A DNA stretch of 64,000 nucleotides, from positions 43,524,001-43,588,000 of the forward strand of contig OZ024740.1 in NCBI GenBank assembly GCA_964016885.1, written 5' to 3'. Below are positions 4,812-64,000 of the stretch, piece after piece; position 1 is the stretch's first letter; every line of letters starts with the position of its first letter. Source of the DNA: Eledone cirrhosa. Its lineage: Eukaryota. Position numbers and translations under genes: made by a program. The notes beneath the pieces are model-generated. The model did not search any database and was not told where the DNA came from. It was given only the letters and a program-made list of their open reading frames with translations.

Positions 4812-5450
4812 GGATTGGCAGTATTGGTAGACTGTCGGATGCCATGCTTTGACGCATAGAGTTACGGTCCTTGCCATTCTGAGTTCAAATCCCGCCGAGG
4901 TTAACTTTGCCTTTCATCCTTACGGGGTCGATAAAATAAAGTACCAGTAATACACTGGGTAATTGCTGGCCTTGTGCCTAACGTAGAAACAATTATTGGC
5001 AGTATCGTTAGAGGGTCAGACGCCATGCTTTGACGCATAAAGTTACGGCCCTTACCATTCTGAGTTCAAATCCTGCCGAAGTTAACTTTGCCTTTCATCC
5101 TTACGGGGTCGATAAAATAAAGTACCAGTAATGCACTGGCTAATTGCTGGCTTTGTGCCAAAAGTAGAAACAATTAAATTAAGTGTCTTACTGAAGGATG
5201 CACCGGTCTGCCGGGAATAACACATAATCAAACGATTGTGTGCCGAAACCCAAACCGCTACATCACATCCCTTCAGACACGTATACAATCTTGGTATTAT
5301 TTATCACAGAGTTACGTCCCTTTACGGTATGGGATCAAATCCCGCCGAGGTTAACTTTGCCTTTCATCCCTACGGGGTCGATAAAATAAAATACCAATAA
5401 TGCACTGGGATAATTGCTGGCCTTGTGCCAAAAGTAGTAACAATTAATTA
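4812..5450 (+). mobile_element. Three SINE copies (approx. 4812-4997, 4995-5177, 5307-5450)
   Basis: Same SINE head, core and tail motifs on the + strand. Confidence 0.88.
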
Positions 5451-17364: not shown

Positions 17365-17397
17365 TTTCTTTTCCTCTTTTAACTTTTCAGCACCAAC

Positions 17398-24868: not shown

Positions 24869-25831
24869 CTCTTTTTATAGTAAGAAATTGTTCTCGCTCC
24901 ACATAATGACGTAAATATAGTTTAAACATTATTATTTTTAGTTTTATTTTCAATAAAAATAACTTTATTAATATTTAAAAACGGAAAGGTAGGGAAAGGC
25001 AAGCGCTCCAGTATCACAGAAGATGGAAGGAGAAAGGGGAAAAGTGATAGGCTCTGGGCCTAGAGTGCCGCAGTGTTGGGGCAGCGCCCAGCGGACAAGA
25101 CCGCTAAATCATTTCCACGGACAATGGCTAGATAGACCCGCTGTAACAGGAACTCCAACTCGCGAGGCTCCTTCCTCAGACGGATGCCGACGTTCTGATC
25201 TTGCAGAAGAGGTCGGGAATACGGGGTCTGAGGTCTCAGTGGCGATCGGTGCGAACAATCATCGGTATTAGTCTTCCTTTCCTCTGCATTGCGGGCCGCT
25301 GTGCCGGGATTTGTGTCCTAAGTAACTAATTTGGAGGCGGCGGAGAACGTATCGTAACATGTAATTATCGTTGCATATTTTTCGCCCATCGCCAGAGAAT
25401 GTCTTCGCGAACCACCGTTATGTCTTCCTGTTTTCTTTTAGTTGAAACGATTTTTGAAATAATTACTTCTGTGTCTACAGATTGTTTTTTGTCAGTTTTA
25501 GAAGATCCCGTAATAGAGTGAAAACAGAAATTATTTGCTTGAATTTTAATCTGTACTATTAATAAATATTTACACTACGGGTTTATATATACTTATATAT
25601 ATATATATATATATATTTCGTTTCTGAATTTGTTTAGCAAGATTCGTTATCTGAAATCGTGTGTTGAAACCGATATTGTTATACTTTGGGAGGGTCATGT
25701 TGCCAATAAGAAACACACGCACCAGTTGCTTTCACTTCAATTTAATTTATTAAATATTTATAAATTTACAAATTTATAAATTTCTGGTTGGTTGGTTGGT
25801 TCCACAACCAGATAGTTGTTTATATATATAT

Positions 25832-25876
25832 AGTCATAGTTCTTTCGTCACACACTATGTGACCTCTTCAGTGACT
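25832..25876 (-). ncRNA. Minimal type I hammerhead ribozyme in the Penelope 3' pLTR
   Basis: agtca-CTGAAGA-g-gtcaca-tagtg-tgtgac-GAAA-gaac-TA-tgact. Stems I and II pair perfectly. Confidence 0.8.
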
Positions 25877-26182
25877 GGGATTTCTTTCTTCGTTTCTGTG
25901 CCTTTCCTTTCTTCTATCCTACGCCATTTTGTTTGTGTGTGGGTTGCGTGCTCAGTTTGCGCATGCGCCACATCCGGGTGTCTGTGTGTGTTTGTGTTCA
26001 TTTTTCTATTTTTCTATTTATATTTTTCTATTTGTTTGTTTATTTATTTATTTATTGTTGGTTGGTTGTTTGTTCTATGTGTGTGTGTGTGTTTTCATTT
26101 TGTCTTGTGTGTGTTTTCATTTTGTGTGTGTTTTCAATTGTAAGTTGTTTGTTCTATGTGTGTGTGTGTTTTCATTTTGTCC

Positions 26183-28897
26183 TTAATTGTAAGTTGTGAT
26201 GTTGCTGTTCCACTCATATTTTCTATTTAATTTTGGTTTTAATTCTTTTATGCTTACTGCCTCTGTAATTTGCCTAAACATTGCGTCTTTCTTGTGTGTG
26301 GATTCTATTTTTATTTCTATGCTCTCTAATTTACCCCTGTGTTCTATCTTAGCATGTTGGTAGAGCACAGATGATTCTTTACTATCTTGGAGGTCTCGCC
26401 AGTGTTCATTTATTCGTTCCCCTATACTACGAGCTGTCTCACCTATGTACACTATATTTTTGTTTCTACATTGTCCTTCAGTACATCTTATGCTATATAC
26501 TACATTTCTAGTTTTACAGTTAATATGGGGGCTTATTTTACAGGTTATACATTTCTTATCTATACATGAGGGTCTTTGGAACGGGTATGTCTTGCTAATA
26601 AGTGTTTTTACGGAGGTACCAGGTCTTTCTACTATCTTAATATTGAGATTATGTTTCTTTAGGGCCCTTCTAAATTTGTAGGCTAGTTCGCCTCTAGGGG
26701 TTGTATTGATGAACATTACACTCTGGTATTTATTGCTATCATACCATGAGTTTATTCTATTGGCCTTGTTCTTAGTTCTTTCTATTCTATTCCAAAATTT
26801 GCTCCTATACAAGGGGCAGGTCCCATTTATGTCATTATTTACCATTTTTTCCCATTTGGTTCTGGCTCCTTTATACACTCTGATTCTATCTCTCTGATTG
26901 TAGCCAGAGAACTGCATACGGTGGATGAAGTGTTGTATGTGTCTCTCTAGTTCTTCGGGGTTGCACATGCGGGACACATTTTTCATCACCCGTACCAAAT
27001 CCGCAATCAGTATGTTGATTTTGGTATGGTCCGAAATGGCCGAGTTTCGGTGGATCAGATGTTTGGAAGTCATGGGTTTGGCATAATGGGAATGGAGGAT
27101 TTGTTTTTGGTTGTTAATAGTATCTAACCAGAGCTCTGTGTCTAGTACAGGTAATCGATGGTTGGGGTGTCTACTTGGGTAGTCTATAGTAACTCTAATG
27201 CTCTGGTGGATGGAGTTTGCTATTTGCTGGATGCTTTCCATTGTGTTTTTCTCTAGTTCCTGACTGTTCTTTAGTGGGGGTGTCTTAACTACGATGTTTA
27301 TATCATCTACGTAGCGGGAGTACATTATCAGGGTTAAGCTGTCTTCTAATTGTTCATTAAGTTTTTGTTTAAGTCTACTGTCCCACCATACCATGAATAA
27401 GTTAGCTATGTCGCCTGCAATGCTAACACCAATGGCTGCTCCTTCCTCTTGGGCATATGTTTTACCATTAAATTTGAACATATGTTCCTTAAGGGTTAAT
27501 TTTATGCTGGCCCCTACCGCATGTGCAATCATTTTCTTCAGTTCATCGTGGTTTTCGGGTGTCCGTATGGCTCTGGTCCACCCGTTCCATCTATCTGTGT
27601 GGGTTTTCTTGGCCATTGAGGTAATGGTAGGTGGTCTGCCTCTTGCTGGTCTTGTAGGGCACAGGTTGCTAAGGTCATAAGTGTCTAGGTAACTATTACT
27701 ATGGGTAAGCTTAAGTAGAAGTCCCAGCTCACTGGTATCAATCCCACGGAACTCAACCTTGCTCTCGCCGATCATTTCGACGCATTTCTCCACAGCAAAA
27801 TCCACGTCAATAGATGGATACAGGGACACAACATCCATACTGCCTATTATGCAGTTTGTTAGGTCCCCAGATCGGTTACCCGCGCCGATTCTGCCGAGGA
27901 GGTCCTCCGTGCTGTCACACACATCTGGGGACATCTCGATGATGGGGCGTATGATCAGGGAGAGGAAGTAGGACAGTCTGTAGTTACTAGCAATGTTAGC
28001 CCCACAGACTGGCCGTGTTGGTGGTCCCGCGACAGGGTCCCAGCCCGTTTTATGGTCTTTTCGAAGCCCATACAACGCCGGCACGTCATTGTTCCAGGCC
28101 TGGAAGTTGTTGGCAGTCCTTTTGTTGGGCTGCATTATATTTGTCCACATCACCATATGGGCATTGAGGGTTTTTTCTCTATCCTCATGCTCCTGTGGTG
28201 TTACCTCTCTTGTGTTAGTGATGTGGGGTTGCATTGCCTGGATGTAGTTTGGCAGGCTGTCAACCGACATTCTGCCAGACTTGTCTGTTGGAAAGCATGC
28301 TATCTCTCCATTACACGAGCGCTGCATGAGCTTACGCAAGCCATTTGCAGATTCTTCTCCCAGTTGCTGGGCCTCTATTCTATTATGCTTCTTGCTATAC
28401 TGTTCTATAATATTTCTAAGTTCGGATTTAGCTATACTAAATTGTGCTTCTGTTTGTTCATCGACCTGCGACGGCAACTGCGTGCGTTTGTTAAATGGCA
28501 AAGTCGTGGCGTGGACTCGTCGCAGGTCGAATGATTTATCGGAGGGGTTATAAAACGGAGAGTTCCAGGCTGCTGCTTTATGTGTACTAGTGCTATTGTT
28601 ATTGTTAGTTGTGTTGTTTCTATTTCCACCAACAGCAGCAGCCTCAGCTTCATGGTTGTTTCTATGTCTCTCATAATTACTCCTGTCTCTTTCCACTGGC
28701 TCAATGTTGTTATCTACCCTATTTTGTGTGTCTGTGTGTTCGTCTTGGTTATTCTCTTTGTCCTTAGTCTCCCATCTCCTTTTCCTTTTCCTTTTAATCC
28801 TATTACTTTCTCTTATTTCTCTGATTTCTGTGCTACTGTCATTACTTGTTTTCTGTGTCTGTGTGTTTGTTAAGATTGTGGTGGTGGTGAGAGGCAT
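26183..28897 (-). CDS. Penelope-like reverse transcriptase plus GIY-YIG endonuclease (904 aa open)
   Basis: PTDKSG, LYGLRKDHK, PTRPV, SMDVVSLYPSI, QEEGAAIG, RYVDDI, LPVLD, then NVVYSIRC...YIGETARSIGERINEH...EAVSI...LN. Confidence 0.93.
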   Translation of the reverse strand: MPLTTTTILTNTQTQKTSNDSSTEIREIRESNRIKRKRKRRWETKDKENNQDEHTDTQNRVDNNIEPVERDRSNYERHRNNHEAEAAAVGGNRNNTTNNNNSTSTHKAAAWNSPFYNPSDKSFDLRRVHATTLPFNKRTQLPSQVDEQTEAQFSIAKSELRNIIEQYSKKHNRIEAQQLGEESANGLRKLMQRSCNGEIACFPTDKSGRMSVDSLPNYIQAMQPHITNTREVTPQEHEDREKTLNAHMVMWTNIMQPNKRTANNFQAWNNDVPALYGLRKDHKTGWDPVAGPPTRPVCGANIASNYRLSYFLSLIIRPIIEMSPDVCDSTEDLLGRIGAGNRSGDLTNCIIGSMDVVSLYPSIDVDFAVEKCVEMIGESKVEFRGIDTSELGLLLKLTHSNSYLDTYDLSNLCPTRPARGRPPTITSMAKKTHTDRWNGWTRAIRTPENHDELKKMIAHAVGASIKLTLKEHMFKFNGKTYAQEEGAAIGVSIAGDIANLFMVWWDSRLKQKLNEQLEDSLTLIMYSRYVDDINIVVKTPPLKNSQELEKNTMESIQQIANSIHQSIRVTIDYPSRHPNHRLPVLDTELWLDTINNQKQILHSHYAKPMTSKHLIHRNSAISDHTKINILIADLVRVMKNVSRMCNPEELERHIQHFIHRMQFSGYNQRDRIRVYKGARTKWEKMVNNDINGTCPLYRSKFWNRIERTKNKANRINSWYDSNKYQSVMFINTTPRGELAYKFRRALKKHNLNIKIVERPGTSVKTLISKTYPFQRPSCIDKKCITCKISPHINCKTRNVVYSIRCTEGQCRNKNIVYIGETARSIGERINEHWRDLQDSKESSVLYQHAKIEHRGKLESIEIKIESTHKKDAMFRQITEAVSIKELKPKLNRKYEWNSNITTYN

Positions 28898-30032
28898 TGA
28901 AGGCGTGTGTGTTGTTGTTGTTGATGTGTGTTGTTGTTGATGTGTGTTGTTGTTGTCTCCGTGTGTGTGTGTTATCGTTGTTGTGTGTGTTGTTATTGTT
29001 GTTTGTGTTTGCGTGTCTGTTGTTGTTGTATCTGGGTATGTTGCTATTGTTGTTGTTGTTGATGTGTGTGTTGTTGTTATTATTGTCTCCGTGTGTGTTG
29101 TTATTGTTGTTTGTGTCTGCGTGTCTGTTGTATCTGGGTATGTTGCTATTGTTGTTGTTGTATCTGGGTATGTTGCTATTGTTGTTGTTATTGTTGTTTG
29201 TGTCTGTGTGTCTGTTGTTGTTGGGATGTGTGTTGTATATGTGTGTGCGTATATTGTTGCTTTTGTTTTTGTTTTTGATGCTCCAGCGTAGTTTCGTAAA
29301 TGATTTTTCTATTTCTGACAGACAACTAATCATATTTACCTTCTGGAATGTCGCAAATTTGGGTGGCAGACGTAACACAGACATTTCATTATTATCTATT
29401 TCCGTGTTTCCATAAATGTTGGTATTTTCATTGTTGAACTCTTCAGATAATGAGGTGTCGGCCATGTTGATACCGTCAATTTTGTCGGGATATCTATTGG
29501 TATACTCTATAGTATCCCGATTTAGCTTTGCCTGTTTAAGCCACTTTAATTTTCTGTTAAAGTGCTTATTACATTCTTGAGTAATGTACTGTTCTTCGGG
29601 GCGTATAAGGCTTATAAATGTTAGTTTTTCTGCTGGTGTGGTGATTTTAGATATTTCATCTATTAGGTTACGCTTTAGTTTTTCTTGATGACTTAATTCT
29701 CTATAGATCTTCTTTTTTATGTTTAGAATTAAAGTTCGTTTTAGCCTATCTGCTTGTTTTTTGGTGAGTTGTAATCTTCTAACGTCGGTATTGATGGTGT
29801 TGGTGTAGATTCTAGAAGTGGTGCACAGTTTTATGAAGTGTAGTTGTCGAGATGTTATGGTTTTTCGTAGACAACAGAACATGGTGGTTTTCAGTATCTT
29901 GTTAGCCTGGCTAAGGTTTACGATATTTCGTTTCTGAATTTGTTTAGCAAGATTCTTTATCTGAAATCGTGTGTTGAAACCGATATTGTTATACTTTGGG
30001 AGGGTCATGTTGCCAATAAGAAACACACGCAC
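28842..30032 (-). CDS. Penelope N-terminal portion (396 aa), probably the same ORF split by a frameshift within an N/T/H-rich repeat
   Basis: PLE-type N-terminus (LHFIKLC, E.SVLRLPPKFA, EIEKSFTKLRW). It overlaps the downstream ORF inside a (AAC/AC)-rich tandem tract. Confidence 0.75.
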   Translation of the reverse strand: MRVFLIGNMTLPKYNNIGFNTRFQIKNLAKQIQKRNIVNLSQANKILKTTMFCCLRKTITSRQLHFIKLCTTSRIYTNTINTDVRRLQLTKKQADRLKRTLILNIKKKIYRELSHQEKLKRNLIDEISKITTPAEKLTFISLIRPEEQYITQECNKHFNRKLKWLKQAKLNRDTIEYTNRYPDKIDGINMADTSLSEEFNNENTNIYGNTEIDNNEMSVLRLPPKFATFQKVNMISCLSEIEKSFTKLRWSIKNKNKSNNIRTHIYNTHPNNNRHTDTNNNNNNNSNIPRYNNNNSNIPRYNRHADTNNNNNTHGDNNNNNTHINNNNNSNIPRYNNNRHANTNNNNNTHNNDNTHTRRQQQHTSTTTHINNNNTHAFNASHHHHNLNKHTDTENK

Positions 30033-30239
30033 CAGTTGCTTTCACTTCAATTAATAACAAATTATTGTGTGACGAAAGAACTATGACTATATATATATAA
30101 ACAACTATCTGGTTGTGGAACCAACCAACCAACCAGAAATTTATAAATTTGTAAATTTATAAATATTTAATAAATTAAATTGAAGTGAAAGCAACTGGTG
30201 CGTGTGTTTCTTATTGGCAACATGACCCTCCCAAAGTAT

Positions 30240-30611
<372 letters not shown>

Positions 30612-46000: not shown

Positions 46001-46028
46001 ATATTATATTATTATTATTATTATTATT

Positions 46029-49000
46029 TGCATTTATCTTGCTTTATGTTTATACGAGTTATCACCAAGTCACAACCAGTGACCTCAAGAGACAACAAGG
46101 TCCGCCATGTTCAAGAAAGAACATACATATTCACACATGCATCCTTAGTGTTTAGACTTGTGATGTACTTATATTGACAGGATCTTCCTTAGTATATGGG
46201 CAGTTCCCATTAGTACTATCTTTTGTATTTCTCCTATACGCGGGTTTCCTGGGGTTTGCGATAAGTAGTCGTTAGACCCCTTAGGTATCATTCCCAGAGC
46301 GCCTACAACCACTGGTATTGTTTTAGTTCTCAATTTCCACATTTTTCCAATTTCTATCTCCAGGTCCTTATACTTGCTCAATATTTCAAATGTTTTTATA
46401 GATACATTCTTGTCTATTGGAACAGACATATCAATTAGCAGGCATACCCTCCTTTGAAAGTCCTTCAATATTATATCAGGTCTATTTGCATCTATTTTTC
46501 GGTCTGTTTGGATGCTAAAGTTCCACAAGATTGAGATGTGATCTTTTTCAAGTATGGGAGGTGGTTGATGTTCCCACCAATTCTTTTGATGGGGCAGGTC
46601 AAAATGCTTACACATTATCCAATGTATGTATTGTGCAGCTCTGTCATGCCTGTTTAGGTATTCGGTTGGAGCTATAGGACTGCACATTGAAATTATATGG
46701 TCAATGGTCTCTGGTTGTTTTTTGCATACACGGCATAATGGGCTGCACCCATTTTTTATTATGTTGGCTTGGTAATTTTTTGTTGGCAGACACTGATCTT
46801 GTGCGGATATAATCAGTCCTTCAGTCTCCGATTTCAGTCCAGTGGATGCCAACCACTGATGGGTTAAAGTTTTGTCAACATCAGGATTGTTAGCTCGCTC
46901 TGGGTATTTTCCATACAGAGGCTTTTCTTGCCATTTCTTAGCCAGTTTCTGTAGCAGTTCTTTCTTTGCAGTTACTTTTACCTGCTTTGCTTTTTCTGTG
47001 TTTTCCATTTCAGCAGTAAATGGGACTTCTGAAATTTGTAGTCCATTACTGTATCTTTGTGCATCTTTTGTAATGGAATATGATCTTTTGGTGCTTTCGT
47101 GTTTCAAAACGAGTTTGATCATCCAATCATGTGATTCCCTTAGATATGTGGATAATCCAATTGTTGCAGTTTTCAACGCAATGTCTAACTGGATTAACCC
47201 ACGTCCTCCTTCTTTCCTAGGGAGATATATTCTATCTATGTCTGCCTTAGGGTGATGCATTCTGTGCATGGTTAAGAATTTTCGGATTTTTGTATCGAGC
47301 CTACGGATCTCTGTGCTTGACCAGTTGATGACATTGTAACTGTAGGTTACTACTGGTATGGCAAGCGTGTTTATGGCATCGATCCTATTCCTTGCATTCA
47401 ATTCCGTTCTTAAGATTGCTCTGACTCTGCGGTAACATTCCTTCCTTATCCTTTCCCTCATTGTCGAGTGCTTGATTCCGTCTCCTTCACAAACACCTAG
47501 ATATTTGTAAGTTTGCTCTTGATCAAGCTCTCTTATCACGTTCCCCCGATCAAGATTAATGTCTGAACTCTTCAGCAGCTTTCCTCTGGTGAACGTGGCT
47601 TTGGTGCATTTATCCAGTCCAAACTCCATTTTAATGTCATCACTGAACTGCTTCACAGTGGATAATAGCCCTTGCAATTGTTCATCATTTTTTGCAAATA
47701 GTTTCAGGTCATCCATGTAGAACAGGTGATTAATGGTTTTGTCATACACTCTATATCCATGTTTTGTTTCATTGAGCATTTTACTTAATGGTATAAGTGC
47801 GATGCAGAATAAAAGCGGTGATAAAGAGTCACCCTGAAAAATTCCACAATTAATGTTAACTTCTCCAGCTTCCAGTGATTTTGTTTCACTATTCAAAAGG
47901 AGTGTCGTTCTCCATGTCCTCATACTGAATGACAAAAACCTCCTGACAACGGGGGATATTTTGAAAATCTCTAAACATTTTTCAATCCAACTGTGTGGCA
48001 AACTATCAAATGCTTTTTTATAATCTATCCAAGCAATCGATAGATTTTTGTGTCTATTATGACAATCTTCCAGTATCATTTTGTTAACCAGAAGCTGATC
48101 CTTACAGCCATATGAGCCTCGTTTACACCCTTTCTGCTCAATGGGAAATAGGTCATTTGTTATCAGGTGGTCATATGTGTATTCAGTTAGGACTGATGTT
48201 AAAATTTTATACATTGTGGTCAAGCAGGTTATCGGTCTGTAATTTTTGGGATTGTTTGTCTCATCATTCTTCGGTAGCAGGAATGTAATGCCGTTAACTA
48301 GCCATGATGGTATCTTTTCTGGCTCCTTAACTATTTCATTGTAAAGTTGGGCTAACAGCTCATGAGACTCTGTGAAGGCATTTATCCAAAAGTTTTGTAT
48401 TTTGTCTTTTCCTGGGGATTTCCATTTGCTGGTTTTTCTTAGAGCCAAGCGCAGCTGTTCAACTGTTATATTTTCCCATGTTTGTTCTTCAAGGTGAGCT
48501 GTTTCTTTCATTTGTCCGTCTATCCATGGGGCATGTATGTTATGAACTTTTTCTTCGGCCCAGATCTTTTCCCAGAATTCTTGCACTTCCTCCTTGGGTG
48601 GTATTGATTTAGCAGTTATTGTTGACTTACCAATTTTTCTCTAGAAGTTTCTTTGGTTGTTTTTGAACATATTATTGTCCGTATAGAATCTAGATCGTTT
48701 TTCAAAGCGCCTTATACGAGCAGCTTTGGCCGACACTTTTTGCTTGATTGTTTCTATCAGCATGTCTATGTCACATGTTGATCTTATACTGTACTTTTTT
48801 TTCAATTTTCTAAGTTTAGTTTGTTTAACATGTTCACCTACTTTATAGTTTGTTAAAATTTCTATGTCAGATCGGAGAAGGTTTATTTGGCGATTGATGT
48901 TATCTTGCCAAGTAGATTTCTTGTGGGAATTCCTTTGTTTTTTCATCTTCACTCCACATAAGTGAGTGGTGACTTTAGCCGATGCATAATAGAGATGATT

Positions 49001-50000
49001 TAAGTCAGTAATGTTTAGTTTGTTTGTGATGATAATGTTTTTGAGAATTATGTTAGTCTTGTGTATTATCTTTTGGTTCTGTTTGGAGTTCTGGATCTTA
49101 GGGAGGGTGTCTCGTTCCCCCATGTCAGATTCTTTCATTTTCATCCATTCGATCATAATTTCATCCTTCAAGTTGGCAAGTTCATTCTCATTCATTTCTT
49201 TATCATTTACGATCTCATTATTTCCATTTGGAGTTTCATCCTGAGCATGCACTCCCTCCACTTTTTCGCTCCTTTCTTTAATTTGTTCTGTTGCCAGTGA
49301 TTCCGCCCCAACCCTGGGATTCGAAGTGTTACAGTTTACCTCGTTTTCACTGACACATGCTTCATTTTCCCTTCGCTGACTTTGTGCTACTAGCTTGATC
49401 TGATCAATTTCTATATCAGTTAGTAACTTTTTTCTTACAATATTTCTTCGTATATTGGCTAGTTTGTTACTATCAATATAGCCTCTGTTTTCGGGATGTT
49501 TCTTTTTCCAGTTGATATATGTTTGTTCTGTATTCGATGTATTTGATGGGTAGTACATGGCAGTGTAGAAAGCCTCAAGGACTTCTTTATTATCTTCCCT
49601 TGACCATTTTTCTCTCTTTTTCTTTGGATTTCTTGGTGGTGAGCATGGAGGGCCAACAGTAGGAGTATTCCGGTTATGGGAGGTCTCCAGCTCCGAAGTG
49701 ATGGGAAGGTTTGAACCATTAGCTGATTTTTCGACCCCAGTCTGGTTCCTCTCTGAGGGACGCGGCCCTTTTTTACCCGGGTGACGGCCGATCCGGTATG
49801 AGATTTCATCATTAGACATCTACTTTATTTTGTCGCGTTTTATCCTTATCCGCCAAGGGGTAATCATTTCGTGTTACCACTTCTAGAACGAGTGTCAACC
49901 AAGACTAGAGGGGTCGTTCTCCCCTAGAGACATGGCTATTCCCCGCCGGCCGCCATCCCGGTATTTCTTGGTCACGGGGTTTTCTTTTTGTTGTTTTTTT
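46029..50000 (-). mobile_element. R4/Dong-clade LINE copy B (divergent family)
   Basis: Same domain set with a different sequence. The 3' end abuts (TTA)n at 46007-46028. The 5' boundary is uncertain and may extend to about 50925. Confidence 0.85.
46169..49819 (-). pseudogene. Dong/R4 ORF (about 1216 codons) with a single in-frame TAG at 48641
   Basis: ORFs 48641-49819 and 46169-48586 are in the same frame. Motifs include YMDD, CRVC..ETIDHIISMC, RHD and RPDI..LIDMSVP. Confidence 0.9.
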
Positions 50001-50119
50001 TAAATTGTTATTATCATGAGTGGTTCCTTAATGTGAGCATTGCGTGGCTTAAGAATGAAATTATTAATAATTGTCTCCACTCCAGGCACAAGGCCAGCAA
50101 TCACCCAGTGCATTACAAT

Positions 50120-50925
50120 AATATAATATACTTTTTGTTGTAGTTGGCTGTTATTGCTGCTGGCTATGTCGGTGGTGGTGCCGGGGCTTTTTATATTGTT
50201 GGTGAGAAAGGGGTGAGCCAGCAGTCCCATAATTGTTGATGTAGACGTTTGTCCGTGGCAAGGTCACCAAGTCAATCTATTTATATCTTTTGCTAGCCTC
50301 TCTCTTGTCTAGTGCTACCGCCACCTTCCCTTTTCTCTCTCAAGTTAACAGGGGAATAGTGTCAGTAGCATTGAATGAGTGGTGGCGGCGATGATGGATG
50401 TGGTGGGGGGGTGGCAGCGGTGGTGTTGTGGTTACTGATATAGTATCTATGATTTTGTGTTCGTATGTTTAATATATATTTTCATTATATTTTGTGTTGA
50501 CATATTCCCGTAAAATTTGAATTAAACATTTTTTTAAATTTGAGACAATAATAATAGTAATTATTATTATGATGCCGGTGAAGTTGCCGTTATATTTAGT
50601 GTGATGGGATAGGTAGTGTATCAAGTTTCTGGTGTTGGTGAAATTGAAATTGCCGCTGTTCTATATAGTGTAGACAGAGGGTGTTTTGTTCCATTTATAA
50701 CCATTTTCTTTTTTTGAATACAAAATATATAATACAAAATTGAATATTTGAGCGATACAACAATATAATATGGATCCGAAACTTTATGGGACCTCATTCG
50801 GTGCCTTTATGCAACATTTGTGCTAAGAATTGTTCTTTCACAATTGATTTAAATATGTTAAAAATCAAAAAACTTATGGGAGCAATTTCGTGACGTTCTA
50901 CCACCTCGTGCGTCTTCTTCCCTTA
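50120..50925 (-). mobile_element. Dong-type 5' UTR homologous to the 5' ends of copies A and C
   Basis: aaaactta[c/t]gggagc...cacctcgtgcgtcttcttccc is shared with 57024-57075 and, more weakly, with 45951-45997. Confidence 0.7.
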
Positions 50926-50937
50926 TTCTTATTATTA

Positions 50938-51793
50938 GTGGAGGGGAAGAGCGACGACGTACTTGGAGAAACTCTAGGCGTCGACGAAAATCAACTAGCC
51001 AATCTCTTCGGAAGGACTTTCGGGCCGGGGCCTATGGACAACTTCCAGAAATCCCTGGCCTGGCAGTGCTACCGAGGAGCTTTGCCAGTTCGGGATAAAC
51101 TCTACAGGCATGGAGGTGCCGTCAGCCGGGCATGTCCGAGATGCGCGCAGGGCGACGAAACCGTCCTGCACGCACTCGTCCAGTGTCCGAGCATTGCTGA
51201 CTTGTGGGTTTATGTCGAACACCTGCTGTCACGTGTAGGACGGATCCAGCTATCAGCTGAGTCCATCGTGAGGATTGCCCCGCCCCCTTCCTTTAGCCTG
51301 GAAGGGCAGGCAGTTTTTATCTGTCTGGTGGCCATGGCGAAAGAGATAGTATGGTGGACACGTTTGAAAGGGCTGAAGACGAGCACTTACCTCTTCGGTG
51401 ATGCCCTGATTAACTTTTTCAAATTTCATTTGAAAAGGAAAATCAGGGTAGAGAGGGAAGTGCTCTCTTCCCAGCATTTTGTTGAAAGATGGGTGAGAGA
51501 AGCAAGTATGGCCCGAATGAATGGGCCTTCTCTGAGTATGTGTCTGTAAATTAAAGGTGGAAAACTGGGAGAGGGCACTTGCCCTGGTGGTCAGGGCCAC
51601 TGTGGTCTTTTAATGGGCTTTCTCCACAAATGTCCCTTGGAAGTCTCCCCCCTATTGGGGAATTTTTCTTTGTTATTTTATTTCAACCTCTGTTTTTTTT
51701 TTACACGCAGAAATGCCCATTTGTACCGTCCTGTATTGTCCTGTACTGTCCTTAATGTCTACTTTATGTGAACCCTTGTGGTTAATAAAGAAA
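50938..51793 (+). mobile_element. 5'-truncated Tx1/L1 3' fragment related to the 15-21 kb LINE, inserted in (TTA)n
   Basis: KSDDVLGETLGVDE...PMDNFQKSLAWQCYRGALPVRDKL...CPRC matches ORF 20109-20666. It ends in AATAAAgaaaac. Confidence 0.9.
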
Positions 51794-51905
51794 ACATTAT
51801 TATTATTATTATTATTATTATTGTTGTTATTCCTTGAATCTCAGTCATTGATGTTGGTTAACTGGAAAGTCCGTTGGAATGAATATCAAGCCACTACCTG
51901 CAGCC

Positions 51906-54900
51906 TCAGATATTCAGGACGTATCGGAGGGTTCTTGCTGTTCCAAGCAAGCATGCCTTTTGAAGCGTTCCAAAAAGCGTGAAGGGGCCGATTTTCTTTA
52001 ACCATCCCTGGAAACTTTTGGAGATAGTCCCCAGTGCGCCTATGACAATCGGGATCACTTTGACTTCATGGCAGTTCCAAATCCTTTTCACCTCCCACTT
52101 TAGGTCCTGGTATCGGTTAATTTTCTCCCTCTCCTTCTCTTGCACTCTCGTGTCGAACGGGCAGGCCACATCCACAATCAGACACGATCTTTTTTCTTTG
52201 TCCACAACCACCAGGTCAGGTCTATTGTGTTCCAGTTTTTTGTCCGTCTGTATCCTAAAATCCCACAGCACCTTCACCTGATTGTTCTCCATCACCGCCT
52301 CCGGCCTATGCTCATACCATTTCTCAGAATGTGGTAAATTGTTTATTTTGCACAGGTGCCAGTGGATCACCCTGCCCATCACATCGTGTCTCCAGCCCTT
52401 ATAGTGGGTCTGGGCTAGGTGTTTACACTCGGACACAATGTGAGCCACAGTCTCCTCTCTCTCTCCACAGATCCTGCACAGTGGGCTAGCCTCCTCCTTG
52501 TAAATATGGTGCTTCAACCACTTCGTTTTGAGGGCCTGCTGCTGCGCAGCCATTATTATTCCTTCTGTAGCCTTTTTGAGGTCTCCTCTTCTCAACCAGT
52601 TCCATGTCTGTGGATCTCTAAATTCAGTTTTCTCAAAGAAGGTACTATGAAGGGATTTTCCCTTAAGGCTGCTCTTCCTCCTTGATGTTATTTCCTCCTT
52701 GGACATCCCCTGGCCTACTGTCCCCTCCTTCAGTACAGTTTTGAGCATTGGCTCCTTACTATAGGTCACGTATCTGTATAGGTTGTTTTTCTCCATCTGA
52801 ACACAGTCCTCTATGCTGATAAGACCTCTTCCACCCTCAGATCTCCTTAGGTAGAGTCTATCGACATCACTCCTCTTGTGGAACATGTTGTAGATAGTCA
52901 ATAGCTTCCTAGTCTTCCTATCCATTTATTTTTGTTCAGCAACATTCCATCTCAGAATTCCCGCACTGTACCTAATAATAGACACAGCTCGGGAATTTAC
53001 TGCGCTTATGGCATTTCTGCTGTTCAGATGTGACTTCAATACGCTCCTTACTCTCCGAATGTATTCAGTTCTTAACAATTCCTTCATTTTTTTGTTCTTT
53101 ATGTCATCAGCCTCCAGAACGCCCAAATACTTGTATCCTTCCTCAGAGTCAATTTCCTTTATCATCTCACCTGTTGGTATCTGGATCCCGTTACTTCTGC
53201 TCAACCTACCCCTCTTCATCACAATGACTCCACATTTACCAATACCAAACTGCATACATATATCACTGCTGAAAATACGGACAGTGTCAACAAGTACATC
53301 CAACTCCTTCTCACTTTTCCCGAAGAGCTTAAGATCGTCCATGAAGAGGAGGTGATTGATCGTAAGCTCTCCCCTTCCCAACTTGTATCCTGCTCTCACT
53401 TTTCGCAGCATAATGGTCAAGGGCATCAGGGCAAGGACAAACAACAGAGGGGACAGGCTATCTCCCTGGAAGATACCTCTCTTGATCTTCACGCTTCCCA
53501 AGGATACTCCAGTTGATGTCAACTCTGTCTCCCAGGACCCCATACTTCTGCCTAGCAACTGTCTGATGTTATCCGCCACCCTGAAGATCTCCAGGCTTTT
53601 GGTGATCCAGGAATGAGGCACCATGTCAAATGCCTTTCTGTAGTCTATCCATCCCATGGCAAGATCAGTGTGTCTCCTCCTGCAATTCCCCATTACCATC
53701 TTATCAATAAGCAACTGGTCCTTTGTACCACGTGACTTCTTTCGGCATCCTTTCTGTTCGTCCGGTAACAAGTTGTTTGTGTGGAGGTGATGGTAGATTT
53801 CCTCAGACACAATGCTCGTCAACAGTTTCCACATTACGGGCAGACATGTGATAGGTCTATAGTTGGTAGCATCATTACCCTTGATTCGGTCTTTCATTAT
53901 CAGAACTGTGGTACCTTTTGTCAACCACTCTGGCACCTCACCCGACACCAAGCAGTCATTGAACATGGCCGTCAGCTTCGGGTGGAGGGATGTTAGATGT
54001 TTAATCCAATACCCCTGCACACCATCTGGGCCTGGCGATTTCCAGTTGGTTAGTTTTTTGGCTTGTCCCTTAACAGTTTCAACTGTGATACTCAAATCAG
54101 TCTGTTGCTGTGCCTGCTCACCGATCTCCCTCTGTACTGTCTCAATCCACCCTGCCTGGGCATTGTGTCTAACATCCTGCTCCCATATTCCTCTCCAGAA
54201 TGTTTTAGTTTGCTCCGCCCCAGGGATCAAGTCGTTGCCTCTTTATTTGCCCTCAAGCTGTCCAAACAGCATCTTCTGGTTGTTGTCGAACATGCGGTTC
54301 TGTTTATACTGACTGACTCTGTTCTCGTATCGCCTGATTTTTGCACTCTTTGCTACAATGCGTTGCTTCAATTCCTCTATGATAATATTTAGCTTTTTAC
54401 TCCTAGTTTTGTATTTTATTTCCAGTCTATTTTCAGTGCCTATGTTTTTTAGTGTCCCATTCAGTAGTGACTCAAGCTTTCCTATGTCATTTCTCATTTC
54501 CCCGATTTGCCCACTCAGTCGCTTCTTCCACCACGGCTCTGCTCTTTCTTGTCTGTTGTTTCCTCTCGCTTTTATACCAAGTAGTTTCCTCACCGTATTT
54601 GCTGTTGCTCTGAGGATATTGTTGCACTGGTGAAGGCTCCTCGCCTCAAGGTATGGGATGACTTTGTTTACCTTAGCTGTTGTTTCTTTTAACTTTTTCC
54701 TGTCTACAAATCTTGGGTTCATAGGTCTCCCACTATCATTGTTCAATTCATCTACCACTAAATTTAGGATGTCAACCGAATCTTGTCCTAGCCCGTCAGC
54801 ATTCATCTCCTCAGTGGCCGTATCTCTGTTCCAGGTATTATTTATCTCAGTACTCAGATCATTGTCTGCTTCGGGTGGTTCCTCCGTTCTCAGGACCTCC

Positions 54901-55298
54901 TCACCTTCATTTCCCACCGGCTCGCTTGTCTGGCATACTACACCCGCCATCTCCAAGCCATTCTCTCTGCTCAGTTCCTCCAGTTCCAGCTCGCTTATCC
55001 ACCCATTAGTTCTTATTACCCGAGCCTGCCCGGCCAATTTTTGTTCATCTAATTTAAATAAACCAATCTCGTTCCAGATGTTATGCATCCGTCTCCTGTT
55101 GCCCCTCTCCTTGGGGTTACTTTTCAGGTAGCATTGCATAACAGTTCTATTCAATTCTTTCGTCCAGTTGGTTCTGGCCCCTTTCCTTCTTCTCCTCCCT
55201 CCAACATCAGCAGTATTTGGTTGACAGTCAGGTTCCTGCTGCTGAGCCAGGGGGCACCTGTTGGGTGAGAGTCTGTCACATGACGTTCTAGTCTCCAT
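51906..55298 (-). pseudogene. Dong/R4 ORF (about 1130 codons) with two in-frame TAA stops (54243 and 52926)
   Basis: The three ORF pieces are in one frame. Both stops correspond to GAA in copy A. Confidence 0.9.
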
Positions 55299-55599
55299 TT
55301 CACCGTTATTCGAACTGTTTATGTTCGATATTTAAACACTCTTATCGAGGATTGGCGAATGTATGTTTACATAGCCATCTGTGGATCCGCCATCCCACTT
55401 GGCCCTTGTGTGGAATTATCACCACGCTGTATACGAACACACATAAACAAACAAACACACAGGCAGAAAGGGCCCCAGAAATGAATAAGCATAAGTTTCA
55501 TTGTAATGTAGTGTTCGAATGTCTGACTTAGTTTTAGTTTTTTAAGTTTTACTTTTTCCCCCCTCTTCTCTGCCCGTCCGCCTGCTTCTCTCTTCATTA

Positions 55600-59226: not shown

Positions 59227-59259
<33 letters not shown>

Positions 59260-59264
<5 letters not shown>

Positions 59265-61391
59265 TATAGACATAGAATATTCGAAAATATTCTGTATGTT
59301 TATAATAAACATTTTGAAGACCTAATCGCTATAGAATAGAATACGTCACGTATTACAATTAGATTCTCGATAAAAGCAAGGAGAGTAATCTACGCGTTTC
59401 ATTCTTGTTAGAAATCATCAGGACTACATATCCAGTGCTTTTATCGAGAATGACACAGCTAGAGACTTATAGAATACTTAGCTGTGTACAGGAACTGGTT
59501 TGAAAGAGCGGTTGCCGGTCCGGCAGAAATTAGAAATTGGAATAAATGCTCTGAAATAGCGATATATATGTGAATATAGACATAGAATATTCGAAAATAT
59601 TCTGTATGTTTATAATAAACATTTTGAAGACCTAATCGCTATAGAATAGAATACGTCACGTATTACAATTAGATTCTCGATAAAAGCAAGGGAAGTAATC
59701 TACGCGTTTCATTCTTGTTAGAAATCATCAGGACTACATATCCAGTGCTTTTATCGAGAATGACACAGCTAGAGACTTATAGAATACTTAGCTGTGTACA
59801 GGAACTGGTTTGAAAGAGCGGTTGCCGGTCCGGCAGAAATTAGAAATTGGAATAAATGCTCTGAAATAGCAATATATATGTGAATATAGACATAGAATAT
59901 TCGAAAATATTCTGTATGTTTATAATAAACATTTTGAAGACCTAATCGCTATAGAATAGAATACGTCACGTATTACAATTAGATTCTCGATAAAAGCAAG
60001 GGAAGTAATCTACGCGTTTCATTCTTGTTAGAAATCATCAGGACTACATATCCAGTGCTTTTATCGAGAATGACACAGCTAGAGACTTATAGAATACTTA
60101 GCTGTGTACAGGAACTGGTTTGAAAGAGCGGTTGCCGGTCCGGCAGAAATTAGAAATTGGAATAAATGCTCTGAAATAGCGATATATATGTGAATATAGA
60201 CATAGAATATTCGAAAATATTCTGTATGTTTATAATAAACATTTTGAAGACCTAATCGCTATAGAATAGAATACGTCACGTATTACAATTAGATTCTCGA
60301 TAAAAGCAAGGGAAGTAATCTACGCGTTTCATTCTTGTTAGAAATCATCAGGACTACATATCCAGTGCTTTTATCGAGAATGACACAGCTAGAGACTTAT
60401 AGAATACTTAGCTGTGTACAGGAACTGGTTTGAAAGAGCGGTTGCCGGTCCGGCAGAAATTAGAAATTGGAATAAATGCTCTGAAATAGCGATATATATG
60501 TGAATATAGACATAGAATATTCGAAAATATTCTGTATGTTTATAATAAACATTTTGAAGACCTAATCGCTATAGAATAGAATACGTCACGTATTACAATT
60601 AGATTCTCGATAAAAGCAAGGGAAGTAATCTACGCGTTTCATTCTTGTTAGAAATCATCAGGACTACATATCCAGTGCTTTTATCGAGAATGACACAGCT
60701 AGAGACTTATAGAATACTTAGCTGTGTACAGGAACTGGTTTGAAAGAGCGGTTGCCGGTCCGGCAGAAATTAGAAATTGGAATAAATGCTCTGAAATAGC
60801 GATATATATGTGAATATAGACATAGAATATTCGAAAATATTCTGTATGTTTATAATAAACATTTTGAAGACCTAATCGCTATAGAATAGAATACGTCACG
60901 TATTACAATTAGATTCTCGATAAAAGCAAGGGAAGTAATCTACGCGTTTCATTCTTGTTAGAAATCATCAGGACTACATATCCAGTGCTTTTATCGAGAA
61001 TGACACAGCTAGAGACTTATAGAATACTTAGCTGTGTACAGGAACTGGTTTGAAAGAGCGGTTGCCGGTCCGGCAGAAATTAGAAATTGGAATAAATGCT
61101 CTGAAATAGCGATATATATGTGAATATAGACATAGAATATTCGAAAATATTCTGTATGTTTATAATAAACATTTTGAAGACCTAATCGCTATAGAATAGA
61201 ATACGTCACGTATTACAATTAGATTCTCGATAAAAGCAAGGGAAGTAATCTACGCGTTTCATTCTTGTTAGAAATCATCAGGACTACATATCCAGTGCTT
61301 TTATCGAGAATGACACAGCTAGAGACTTATAGAATACTTAGCTGTGTACAGGAACTGGTTTGAAAGAGCGGTTGCCGGTCCGGCAGAAATT
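59260..61391 (-). mobile_element. Tandem array of about 6.9 near-identical 310-bp monomers, each with a hammerhead (candidate non-LTR retrozyme)
   Basis: Units start at 59261, 59571, 59881, 60191, 60501, 60811 and 61121. There is no ORF, and (TA)n lies at the left end. Confidence 0.9.
59385..59427 (-). ncRNA. Minimal type I hammerhead ribozyme (also at 59695, 60005, 60315, 60625, 60935, 61245, 63065, 63373 and 63681)
   Basis: gtagtc-CTGATGA-tttct-aaca-agaat-GAAAC-gc-GTA^gattac. Stem I is gtagtc/gattac and stem III is the palindrome ACGCGT. Confidence 0.88.
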
Positions 61392-61403
61392 ATATATATT
61401 CAC

Positions 61404-61759
61404 ATATATTCACATATATATCGCTATTTCAGAGCATTTATTCCAATTTCTAATTTCTGCCGGACCGGCAACCGCTCTTTCAAACCAGTTCCTGTACACA
61501 GCTAAGTATTCTATAAGTCTCTAGCTGTGTCATTCTCGATAAAAGCACTGGATATGTAGTCCTGATGATTTCTAACAAGAATGAAACGCGTAGATTACTT
61601 CCCTTGCTTTTATCGAGAATCTAATTGTAATACGTGACGTATTCTATTCTATAGCGATTAGGTCTTCAAAATGTTTATTATAAACATACAGAATATTTTC
61701 GAATATTCTATGTCTATATTCACATATATATCGCTATTTCAGAGCATTTATTCCAATTT
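61404..61759 (+). mobile_element. Inverted ~1.1 monomer at the 5' (sense) end of array 1, with an HHR at 61556-61598
   Basis: Reverse complement of the 310-bp type unit, ending in (TA)n. Confidence 0.9.
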
Positions 61760-61779
61760 ATATATATATATATTATTAT

Positions 61780-61838
<59 letters not shown>

Positions 61839-61878
61839 AGTTTTGCAATATTACACAAATATGACCCTCCCCAAGTAT

Positions 61879-61914
<36 letters not shown>

Positions 61915-61917
<3 letters not shown>

Positions 61918-62666
61918 CGTTTGGTTTCGCTTTTTCTACCAGCCAAAATAAGATTCTCGCTGAATTTATATTTATTTATTTAAATATATCATACACCTAC
62001 GGTAGTAGGTGTAAAATATTCTTAAGGTCCCATTTCGGTCACTCGCGACACCTTCAAATCTTTGTCACTAATTCAATTTTTGATAGAATTGGATGCGGCT
62101 TTTTGCACTTTATAGGACCACAGATAAGCTACTTTTTTACATAAAAATATTGAAATTTTGTTCAGTAGAAAAAAAGTTACATGAAAATAAGTAACGCTTA
62201 GTTTGTTTCTAATTTCTAATACATTAAAATAGTGATAGATTGTGCAATAGTGTATTGTGGTCAGGTAGCTCAGTCGGTAGAGCAGCGGACCGGCAATCCG
62301 AAGGTCGTGGGTTTGATTCCCACCCTGATTACTTTTCCTATCTGCACTTCTTCCTATTCATTATTATTTATTTAACTTATTTGTTGATAGATATTTTTAA
62401 TATTAATCCTAAACCGACGGTAGTCGGTTTAGTAATATTGTTGTCTTAGTGATTTCGTTGGCAATCGTCTCTTTACAGCATTATTAGAATGTCTTCCGAT
62501 TATCAAAATCACAAGAAAGTTATATGAGCATGGAGAGTAAATCATTGCACATCTCTTAAGCTAAAAATCTCGAAATTTCGTTCAGCACAAAAAAAGTTAT
62601 GATCAAAGTTTGCTGAAAAAAACTGTGTTCAAGTGAGTAAGTGAGTGAGTAAGGGTGACGCTCTGT
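61915..62666. mobile_element. Probable non-autonomous DNA element (Helentron-associated or DINE-1-like) between (TA)n tracts
   Basis: Stem-loops acacctac-ggta-gtaggtgt (about 61993-62012) and taaaccgac-ggta-gtcggttta (62411-62432), and a (GAGT)-type microsatellite near the end. Its first ~65 bp match 9213-9270 in reverse. Confidence 0.4.
62259..62331 (+). pseudogene. tRNA-like sequence (pseudo-tRNA or SINE head; nominal anticodon GGC)
   Basis: Cloverleaf GGTCAGG/CCTGATT, D arm GCTC-AGTCGGTA-GAGC, T arm GTGGG-TTTGATT-CCCAC, followed by TTTT. It has C at position 33 and a non-canonical T loop. Confidence 0.65.
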
Positions 62667-62682
62667 TATATATATTTATATT

Positions 62683-62715
<33 letters not shown>

Positions 62716-62784
62716 ATATTTATATATTTATATTTATATATATATATATTTATATTTATATATATATATATTTATCTATATATT

Positions 62785-62820
<36 letters not shown>

Positions 62821-62854
62821 TATATATATTTATATATATATTTATATATATATT

Positions 62855-62885
<31 letters not shown>

Positions 62886-62907
62886 TTATATATATATATA
62901 TATATAT

Positions 62908-63899
62908 ATTGGAATAAATGCTCTGAAATAGCGATATATATGTGAATATAGACATAGAATATTCGAAAATATTCTGTATGTTTATAATAAACATTTTGAA
63001 GACCTAATCGCTATAGAATAATACGTCACGTATTACAATTAGATTCTCGATAAAAGCAAGGGAAGTAATCTACGCGTTTCATTCTTGTTAGAAATCATCA
63101 GGACTACATATCCAGTGCTTTTATCGAGAATGACACAGCTAGAGACTTATAGAATACTTAGCTGTGTACAGGAACTGGTTTGAAAGAGCGGTTGCCGGTC
63201 CGGCAGAAATTAGAAATTGGAATAAATGCTCTGAAATAGCGATATATATGTGAATATAGACATAGAATATTCGAAAATATTCTGTATGTTTATAATAAAC
63301 ATTTTGAAGACCTAATCGCTATAGAATAATACGTCACGTATTACAATTAGATTCTCGATAAAAGCAAGGGAAGTAATCTACGCGTTTCATTCTTGTTAGA
63401 AATCATCAGGACTACATATCCAGTGCTTTTATCGAGAATGACACAGCTAGAGACTTATAGAATACTTAGCTGTGTACAGGAACTGGTTTGAAAGAGCGGT
63501 TGCCGGTCCGGCAGAAATTAGAAATTGGAATAAATGCTCTGAAATAGCGATATATATGTGAATATAGACATAGAATATTCGAAAATATTCTGTATGTTTA
63601 TAATAAACATTTTGAAGACCTAATCGCTATAGAATAATACGTCACGTATTACAATTAGATTCTCGATAAAAGCGAGGGAAGTAATCTACGCGTTTCATTC
63701 TTGTTAGAAATCATCAGGACTACATATCCAGTGCTTTTATCGAGAATGACACAGCTAGAGACTTATAGAATACTTAGCTGTGTACAGGAACTGGTTTGAA
63801 AGAGCGGTTGCCGGTCCGGCAGAAATTAGAAATTGGAATAAATGCTCTGAAATAGCGATATATATGTGAATATAGACATAGAATATTCGAAAATATTCT
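62908..63899 (-). mobile_element. Second retrozyme-like array, about 3.2 monomers of 308 bp
   Basis: Same unit with a shared 2-bp deletion (agaataatac versus agaatagaatac), preceded by (TA)-rich microsatellite. Confidence 0.9.
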
Positions 63900-64000
63900 A
63901 TGTCTATATTCTATGTCTATATTCACATATATATCGCTATTTCAGAGCATTTATTCCAATTTCTAATTTCTGCCGGACCGGCAACCGCTCTTTCAAACCA
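63900..64000 (+). mobile_element. Inverted (fold-back) arm of array 2, running off the window end
   Basis: Reverse complement of the immediately preceding sequence, with its apex in the native hairpin agaatatt-cgaa-aatattct. Confidence 0.9.

Follow-up and report, generated by a model that had tools for sequence, protein, structure and literature searches.

The window (the whole 64,000-nt stretch of Eledone cirrhosa DNA that was analysed) ends in two arrays of a young, dispersed, non-coding family of 310-nt hammerhead units, whose mirror-image arrays likely arose when a borrowed Penelope-type enzyme twin-primed reverse transcription on one RNA, probably a monomer circle. The repeat unit is non-coding, with no reading frame of at least 150 aa between 59260 and 64000; both insertions are flanked by (TA)n, and the strand flips inside each array, giving plus-strand ribozymes at 61405–61759 and from 63906 onwards. 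The second array extends past the window edge to window-equivalent position 69777. The features are as follows.

59231..59260, no strand: (TA)n target, left flank of insertion 1.
59261..61392, minus strand: left arm of insertion 1 (locus L034), 6.9 units, each 310 nt long; its outer end, at monomer position 130, is an A end without tail.
59385..59427, minus strand: first predicted type I hammerhead, in which a U-U pair closes stem II and stem III is minimal and palindromic, stem I and the core completing it; repeats every 310 nt.
61393..61404, no strand: inner junction of insertion 1, holding a short monomer-like patch.
61405..61759, plus strand: right arm of insertion 1, inverted, 1.15 units; outer end at position 167, a B end with tail; hammerhead core at 61562–61592.
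61760..61834, no strand: (TA)n target, right flank of insertion 1.
62667..62907, no strand: (TA)n target, left flank of insertion 2.
62908..63899, minus strand: left arm of insertion 2, 3.2 units of a 308-nt variant; outer end at position 165, a B end.
63906..64000, plus strand: start of the right arm of insertion 2 (locus L035), same 308-nt variant, 18.9 units, extending past the window edge as far as its A end (position 130).

Eleven type I hammerhead cores (CUGAUGA...GAAAC-GC-GUA) were found in the window, ten on the minus strand and one on the plus strand, with the consensus used for scoring present (C3 U4 G5 A6 N7 G8 A9 / G12 A13 A14, A15-U16 pair, H17; PMC7151607). Together with 4,177 exact genome copies, these confirm the 310-nt hammerhead units reported in the first-pass annotation. 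Its placing of a core on the minus strand of each monomer holds for ten cores but not for the eleventh, as the arrays flip strand. The first cleavage site is predicted, as it was there, between 59391 and 59390; the spacing is 310 nt six times in array 1 and 308 nt in array 2. Stem I is predicted to form 6 bp (pair probabilities 0.85–1.0) and does continue into the 16-bp helix that had been described, by way of an internal loop and 3 bp. Stem II, with its U-U closing pair, has a probability of only ~0.15 in the predicted monomer circle. Folding the monomer as a circle, a check proposed at that stage, gave z = −4.1 against 100 dinucleotide shuffles, although the opposite strand folded equally well (−4.2), so folding alone does not identify the strand. 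Another proposed check, against Rfam Hammerhead_1, was negative: the Rfam search returned no hammerhead at gathering score, its best match being HH9 rather than Hammerhead_1 (18 bits against 52 needed, E 0.065).

Comparison with sister subfamilies supports selection on the predicted ribozyme, in that stems I and II and the 3-8 core pair covary and the core is without fixed variants. In 65 distinct sequences the 3-8 pair was C-G in 29, U-A in 34 and otherwise in 2; stem II was paired in 87% (65% when shuffled) and stem I in 79% (69%), counts which are not independent events, as the sequences are related. Stem III, minimal in the 310-nt family and longer in the sister subfamilies, was left out of this count. 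Among 27 variants fixed across units, 11 fell inside the ribozyme and none inside its core. As a monomer, the predicted ribozyme looks weak; in a related setting, 8/9 predicted Xenopus retrozyme dimers failed to cleave (Li et al. 2026, bioRxiv 10.64898/2026.07.22.740005).

Sequence-pattern matching recovered the 43-nt ribozyme exactly 4,177 times genome-wide and its reversed control not once, so the motif is not a chance occurrence. Rather than the one or few long loci of a classical satellite, the genome search proposed in the first-pass annotation revealed short, scattered arrays, with roughly a thousand junctions for either kind of end (A and B) and a mean arm of 4.4 units. The family has the marks of a non-LTR retrozyme (non-coding tandem unit of ~170–400 nt, a hammerhead in each unit, dispersed multicopy arrays, no LTRs), and that first-pass reading is supported by the dispersed short arrays, the covarying ribozyme and the retrotransposon-type ends. 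In three sequencing runs of unspecified kind a single closed contig of 340 nt was assembled per run (310+30, depth 10–15), and one run gave 642 contigs at very high depth; low-coverage tandem DNA yields the same closed contig, so these say nothing on RNA or circles.

Insertion structure was examined in 71 loci from the first 130 Mb of contig C1, 59 of which had been chosen by one (TA)n-joined end. Left out were L220, which duplicates L059, two small pieces from the inside of L043, and one of the arrays in L034, the second, which is the array counted as L035. Two divergent arms were present in 58/71 loci and convergent arms in none, while ten loci appear single-armed. All 55 complete two-armed loci lay in (TA)n and had one A end (130/139) and one B end (165–172), with the inverted arm and one-sided tail of PLE type (26–33 nt if counted from position 139). 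These ends support an insertion of retrotransposon type. Either arm may be longer (the A arm in 25/55), which rules out simple fold-back copying. Arm lengths fit an exponential with a mean of 4.4 units (107 arms, 4 cut; KS p 0.30), and the mean stays at 3.5–5.5 units in each of four haplotype classes. Arm length differed weakly with ribozyme haplotype (Kruskal p 0.035, arms not independent), a difference to which we give no weight. At the 56 inner junctions, 32 had extra bases and 16 of the other 24 overlapped by at least 2 nt (null 18%), overlaps being blurred by variants.

The two arms of an insertion carried the same haplotype in 43/44 cases (shuffled mean 7.5, maximum 15 of 2000 shuffles), including 28/29 non-reference insertions, with 17 haplotypes overall. 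Shared haplotypes could also derive from two RNAs of one dominant source locus. Units within an arm were also alike: 6/27 insertions of at least 8 units had no within-arm variant, arms of up to ~20 units were nearly uniform, and non-fixed variants comprised 89 singletons against 9 multi-unit variants. Many of the 27 fixed variants were private to a single insertion and only four were ever mosaic. Inner ends fell within 5 nt of the predicted cleavage site in 2/116 cases (3.7 expected if uniform, p 0.44), and 575 passes across that site showed 5 changes (3.0 expected). In 4/48 in-register tests, variants common to both arms were confined to the first round (L067 position 204 and L231 position 173), a pattern not obtainable from a monomer circle. 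The arms of L061 were discordant and mosaic, and periodic variant patterns occurred in the longest arms (L035, L036, L052 and L070), indicating some later turnover. The two in-register variants, together with the single insertion whose arms disagree, suggest that some templates were multimeric or that arms underwent conversion.

A coding Penelope-like element (PLE) lies elsewhere in the window.

25615..30260, minus strand: coding PLE, given as context; two-armed in (TA)n, with a ~56-nt tail on one arm.
26183–29308, minus strand: stop-free frame of this PLE, with RT plus a GIY-YIG-like motif at the C terminus.
25832–25876: minimal hammerhead of this PLE.

The GIY-YIG motif was identified by eye, Pfam matching RVT_1 only and below its cut-off. 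Among named relatives of the protein the best, at 68%, comes from Octopus vulgaris, and a ‘cephalopod’ label for the retrozyme family is plausible. Coding PLE pairs in the same genome, taken as a control, had A and B ends in 19/20 cases, the twentieth continuing into a tandem copy. A purified PLE cuts and extends both strands, with two RT start sites bounding the tail (PMC11167929). A search for a partner covered PLE-A, PLE-C, 20 variant loci and 30 GIY-YIG loci, with only part of the PLE-B pLTR available. The monomer had no significant similarity to the pLTRs of the window PLE/PLE-A and PLE-C (empirical p 0.35–0.58); the 20 variant loci contained separate nearby fragments and no PLE coding stretch joined to monomer modules, and the 30 GIY-YIG loci no PLE with a monomer-homologous pLTR. 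The sole match among the latter, L254, was a sister copy inserted beside a PLE end, and a PLE fragment beside L033 was not counted as a chimera, an N gap lying between them. What is most informative here, namely the two-armed structure, the fixed ends and the link to PLEs, was absent from the first-pass annotation.

The reading we favour is a non-LTR retrozyme that depends on a PLE and is copied when a single monomer circle serves two primers for rolling reverse transcription. An array would be transcribed and its hammerheads would excise monomers, probably as dimers via the palindromic stem III, with a host ligase closing the circles. A PLE protein dimer would dock on the circle beside a conserved hairpin cluster (positions ~78–118); the borrowed enzyme would cut both (TA)n strands and prime two reverse transcriptions on one RNA, one DNA end priming at the AU tract (130/139) through microhomology and the other 26–42 nt further 3′ (165–172) with little homology. 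Both enzymes would circle round the RNA until drop-off, and end-joining would connect the two cDNA ends. The putative circular-RNA step has only indirect support, from the uniform haplotypes and from copying that does not stop at the cleavage site. More tentatively, the arrays might be a genomic record of the PLE cycle itself, in which the dimer always primes both cut (TA)n ends on one RNA at two fixed sites, the retrozyme circle makes this a double rolling circle, and the family goes on retuning its ribozyme, with a stem III that works only in dimers and an enrichment of variants in the hammerhead, to keep the circle closed during copying; two fixed priming sites on one RNA would then yield both the inverted arms and the one-sided tail.

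The template might instead be a long uncleaved linear multimer from a parent array, twin-primed by a PLE, with circles a by-product or rare. We consider this unlikely, even though it would explain the first-round variants shared in register in L067 and L231, suits a ribozyme that looks weak as a monomer, and predicts equally well the absence of a pile-up at the cleavage site; PAc, moreover, mainly uses unprocessed RNA in vitro, hammerhead cleavage not being needed (PMC11167929). No copy of a linear template can be longer than the parent array, and arms would be expected to become shorter from one generation to the next; mean length is nevertheless kept at 3.5–5.5 units in all four haplotype classes. 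Nor can such a template fix a new mutation in every unit, whereas 27 variants are fixed across units, many of them private to a single insertion and only four ever mosaic; just two non-fixed variants are shared in register.

It is less probable still that short two-armed PLE-type insertions of 1–2 units grew by unequal crossing-over, their arms homogenised by gene conversion, although a satellite-growth model is discussed by Li et al. 2026. The periodic variants in L035, L036, L052 and L070 and the nine multi-unit variants speak for such growth, and conversion between arms would account for L067 and L231; but singletons number 89, several arrays of 8–18 units are without internal variant, and in the older sister family the 3-kb loci (a biased view) contain arms that are mostly short, the opposite of growth with age. 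A DNA-level origin that leaves the ribozyme a passenger, by rolling-circle copying of a small circular DNA or by fold-back repair where (TA)n is fragile, seems very improbable. The (TA)n sequence is prone to breakage and a DNA circle would also give uniform units, but the polarity is fixed (58 to 0), the two fixed ends match the PLE rule, the ribozyme covaries, and the longer A arm in 25/55 loci excludes simple fold-back copying.

The retrozyme class is already known, and we did not find this insertion evidence in print. How animal retrozymes return to the genome is posed as an open question in the Discussion of PMC7229834, and why PLEs form inverted repeats with a one-sided tail is posed as open in section 15 of PMC8557442. 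The two start sites, polarity, template sharing between arms and the presence of a template end can be read from about a thousand young insertions, every unit standing for a single enzyme pass. The 310-nt unit also offers a defined substrate for an in vitro PLE assay, and makes natural covariation of the hammerhead 3-8 pair visible within one lineage.

With the metazoan non-LTR retrozymes of coral, mussel and axolotl (Cervera and de la Pena 2020, PMC7229834), as presented in the available text, the family shares a non-coding tandem unit of 170–400 nt with one type I hammerhead each, low GC, thousands of copies, a self-paired monomer and PLEs in the same genome. Its stem III, a single pair with a palindromic tetraloop, resembles that of axolotl Amex1, and the basal U-U of its stem II that of Amex2. 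Those repeats are described there as head-to-tail, and it is hypothesised that a LINE or PLE reverse-transcribes the circles; a word search of the main text gave no description of two-armed arrays, fixed ends or (TA)n targeting. RNA circles have been demonstrated for metazoan retrozymes (PMC7229834), whereas those of the Eledone family are putative. Li et al. 2026 (bioRxiv 10.64898/2026.07.22.740005) propose the same partner class, treating vertebrate retrozymes as non-autonomous PLE derivatives because the two co-occur and have homologous pLTRs, and letting arrays grow by unequal crossover; in the 310-nt family no pLTR homology was detected with the PLEs searched, but a direct PLE insertion signature is present, and their text includes neither molluscs nor inverted arrays. 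Non-autonomous Chlamys elements such as MRC1 are likewise PLE passengers with multicopy head-to-tail insertions, but occur in green algae, have 3′ sequence in common with their partner and mostly lack a canonical hammerhead (Craig 2021, PMC8557442).

Penelope-like elements, in the available text of Craig 2021 (PMC8557442) and Frangieh 2024 (PMC11167929), have an inverted 5′ copy and a 30–40 bp tail on one end only; inverted arms and a one-sided tail are thus shared, as are a microsatellite or AT-rich target, two RT start sites and extension of both strands. In that text we found neither a strict rule of one A end plus one B end nor arms of the same haplotype. Here the A site shows microhomology with the target, whereas the sites at which PAc starts are non-homologous (PMC11167929). 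Unlike coding PLEs, the family has no ORF, and its arms run to multiple rounds. In L1 twin priming, too, both ends of the cut target prime on one RNA to produce an inversion, as a minority outcome with a variable second site; in the 310-nt family the proposed twin priming is the rule, the second site is fixed and the arms are multi-round.

Judged by their sequence, the hammerhead repeats of the window are a real non-LTR retrozyme family that has been mobile recently. The two tandem arrays have units of 310 nt (array 1) and 308 nt (array 2) with 98–100% identity, and each unit carries the type I hammerhead read by the first-pass annotation, with its CUGAUGA...GAAA core and a predicted cleavage site, reproduced here, between 59391 and 59390. 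Stem I comprises 6 bp, an internal loop and then the 16-bp helix noted previously; stem II has 4 bp with a U-U closing pair, and stem III is, as described, palindromic, with six bases. In an Rfam search HH9 was the best model (18 bits), and no hammerhead was called at gathering score. Folding of the monomer on the ribozyme strand gave z = −4.1, but the opposite strand was equally folded.

In the 3.0-Gb genome, 4,177 exact matches were counted for the 43-nt ribozyme sequence of one haplotype, against 0 for the reversed control. Genome pattern searches recovered 980 junctions joining (AT)6 exactly to the position-165 end (numbered on the ribozyme strand, from the base following the cleavage site). 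For the 130/139 end, one strand gave 602 junctions; the opposite-strand count of 958 is too high owing to double listing. We infer somewhat more than a thousand insertions of this young family. Seventy-two loci were sampled from contig C1 (12 via the ribozyme, 40 via the 165 end and 20, new loci only, via the 130/139 end), leaving 71 after removal of one duplicate. Loci L059 and L220 (C1, 56.26 Mb) are one insertion, probably duplicated in assembly, that is present twice next to an N gap.

Two arms, the left with its ribozyme on the − strand and the right on the +, were found in 58/71 loci, and the convergent arrangement in 0/71; of the remaining 13, two leave the fetched stretch, one hits an N gap and ten appear single-armed. 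All 55 complete two-armed insertions had one tail-less outer end at position 130/139 (A end) and one tailed outer end at 165–172 (B end). Outer ends lay within (TA)n in 111/113 cases, roughly half of these guaranteed by locus selection. An AU tract at the A end could base-pair with the target, to which the B end has no more than about 2 nt of homology; either arm may be the longer (A in 25/55). The divergent arm polarity seen here would be predicted if a cut target primed cDNA inward from its two 3′ ends. In one locus (L036:3099–3370) a 272-nt foreign piece lies between the arms, possibly a template-switch capture. A family of coding Penelope-like elements (PLEs) from the same genome served as control: in 19/20 of its two-armed pairs a tail-less end is matched with a tailed one; the twentieth runs into a tandem copy. 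The coding PLE of the window, listed here with the other features, is likewise two-armed.

Other features of the window
2980–4398: 28-bp minisatellite, 51 copies
4814–5176: 181-bp repeat, two copies
17383–19194 (+) and 41752–55331 (−): several broken LINE-type frames (RVT_1, zf-RVT, Exo_endo_phos)
25615–30260: young coding PLE, at least 59 matches, about 99% over 760 aa
61857–61885: end sequence akin to the tail-less end of the window PLE, joined to (TA)n and adjoining insertion 1
61915–62660: stretch of about 750 bp with a (TA)n tract on either side
62259–62332: tRNA-Ala(GGC) gene or tRNA-like sequence, Rfam 64 bits

The (TA)n tracts near insertion 1 gather many PLE-type insertions, and the stretch at 61915–62660 may be a further (TA)n-targeted passenger. 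Unrelated type I hammerhead motifs occur close to (TA)n in L047 (one motif six times, on both strands), L057, L081, L061, L066 and L076, making additional retrozyme families likely.

Both arms of an insertion seem to derive from the same template. Where coverage of the two arms was good, 43/44 insertions had a haplotype common to both (mean after shuffling 7.5, maximum 15). These haplotypes numbered 17, and some carry private variants that are fixed in all units. Arms could also match if they came from two RNAs of a single dominant locus. A new mutation fixed in all units would require a one-unit bottleneck followed by re-expansion. Were the template a linear RNA, arms could only get shorter, whereas a monomer circle would provide both bottleneck and re-expansion within one step. 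Inner arm ends were uniform around the unit, with 2/116 close to the cleavage site. In 575 passes across the cleavage junction 5 changes were seen, and arm length fitted an exponential with a mean of 4.4 units. Non-fixed variants comprised 89 singletons versus 9 in multiple units, and 6/27 insertions of at least 8 units had no internal variant. However, L067 and L231 each have one variant that the two arms share in their first round but not beyond, L061 is a mosaic, and the longest arms have periodic variants, which argues for some multimeric templates or later conversion between arms. On balance, we consider PLE-type twin priming on one RNA, probably rolling on a monomer circle, the likelier origin of the young repeats.

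An older sister lineage, reached with patterns built to exclude the young family, has units of 315–322 nt (1,713 and 2,138 marker matches by pattern search); it too is two-armed, with identical end sites. The hammerhead comes in several versions in its loci L113–L192 (contigs C1 and C2), among them one with a U3-A8 swap. As general background, a U3-A8 pair is compatible with hammerhead activity. Across 65 distinct ribozymes, which as kin sequences represent few independent events, the 3-8 pair was C-G in 29 and U-A in 34, with 2 mismatches, and pairing in stems I and II exceeded all 2,000 shuffles. The hairpin directly 5′ of the A site exchanges a UUCG loop for GCAA, and its stem covaries. In the young family, 11/27 fixed variants were located within the 43 nt of the ribozyme (binomial p = 0.0006), at N7, loop II, the stem II closing pair and stem I, with none in the core. 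Its stem II is largely unformed in the predicted monomer circle, and stem III, longer in the sisters, is a minimal palindrome. If such a ribozyme were to cut multimers yet leave the circle intact, long rolling products would be favoured.

The genome holds several PLE families, at least three with near-identical copies; no homology to the monomer was found in those examined, and their tails, at about 56 and 43 nt, are unlike that of the retrozyme (26–33 nt from position 139). The window PLE protein has its best named relative in Octopus vulgaris (68%), in keeping with, though no proof of, a cephalopod host. The element has a minimal hammerhead of its own, and the 5′ part of its frame contains an AC-rich stretch. 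A second coding, (TA)n-targeting family (L233–L252; tail about 43 nt) follows the A+B rule, and in its pLTR a motif resembling a hammerhead, but with C at core position 4, can be seen by eye.

In published work, giant squid has 235 uncharacterised Rfam hammerhead hits (PMC6962438), minimal palindromic stem III is dimer-active in amphibians (PMC7229834), and positions 3 and 8 need to match in the hammerhead of the PLE PAc, as C3G/G8C rescue indicates (PMC11167929). A search of mainly open-access literature found no paper on a cephalopod retrozyme, a two-armed retrozyme array or PLE twin priming. Earlier reports (Li et al. 2026, bioRxiv 10.64898/2026.07.22.740005; PMC7229834; PMC8557442; PMC11167929) already described the retrozyme class and tailed inverted PLE arms and put forward the PLE link as a hypothesis; as far as the literature was searched, three things appear new: the strict A+B rule, arms from the same template, and genomic indications of rolling reverse transcription on a circle.
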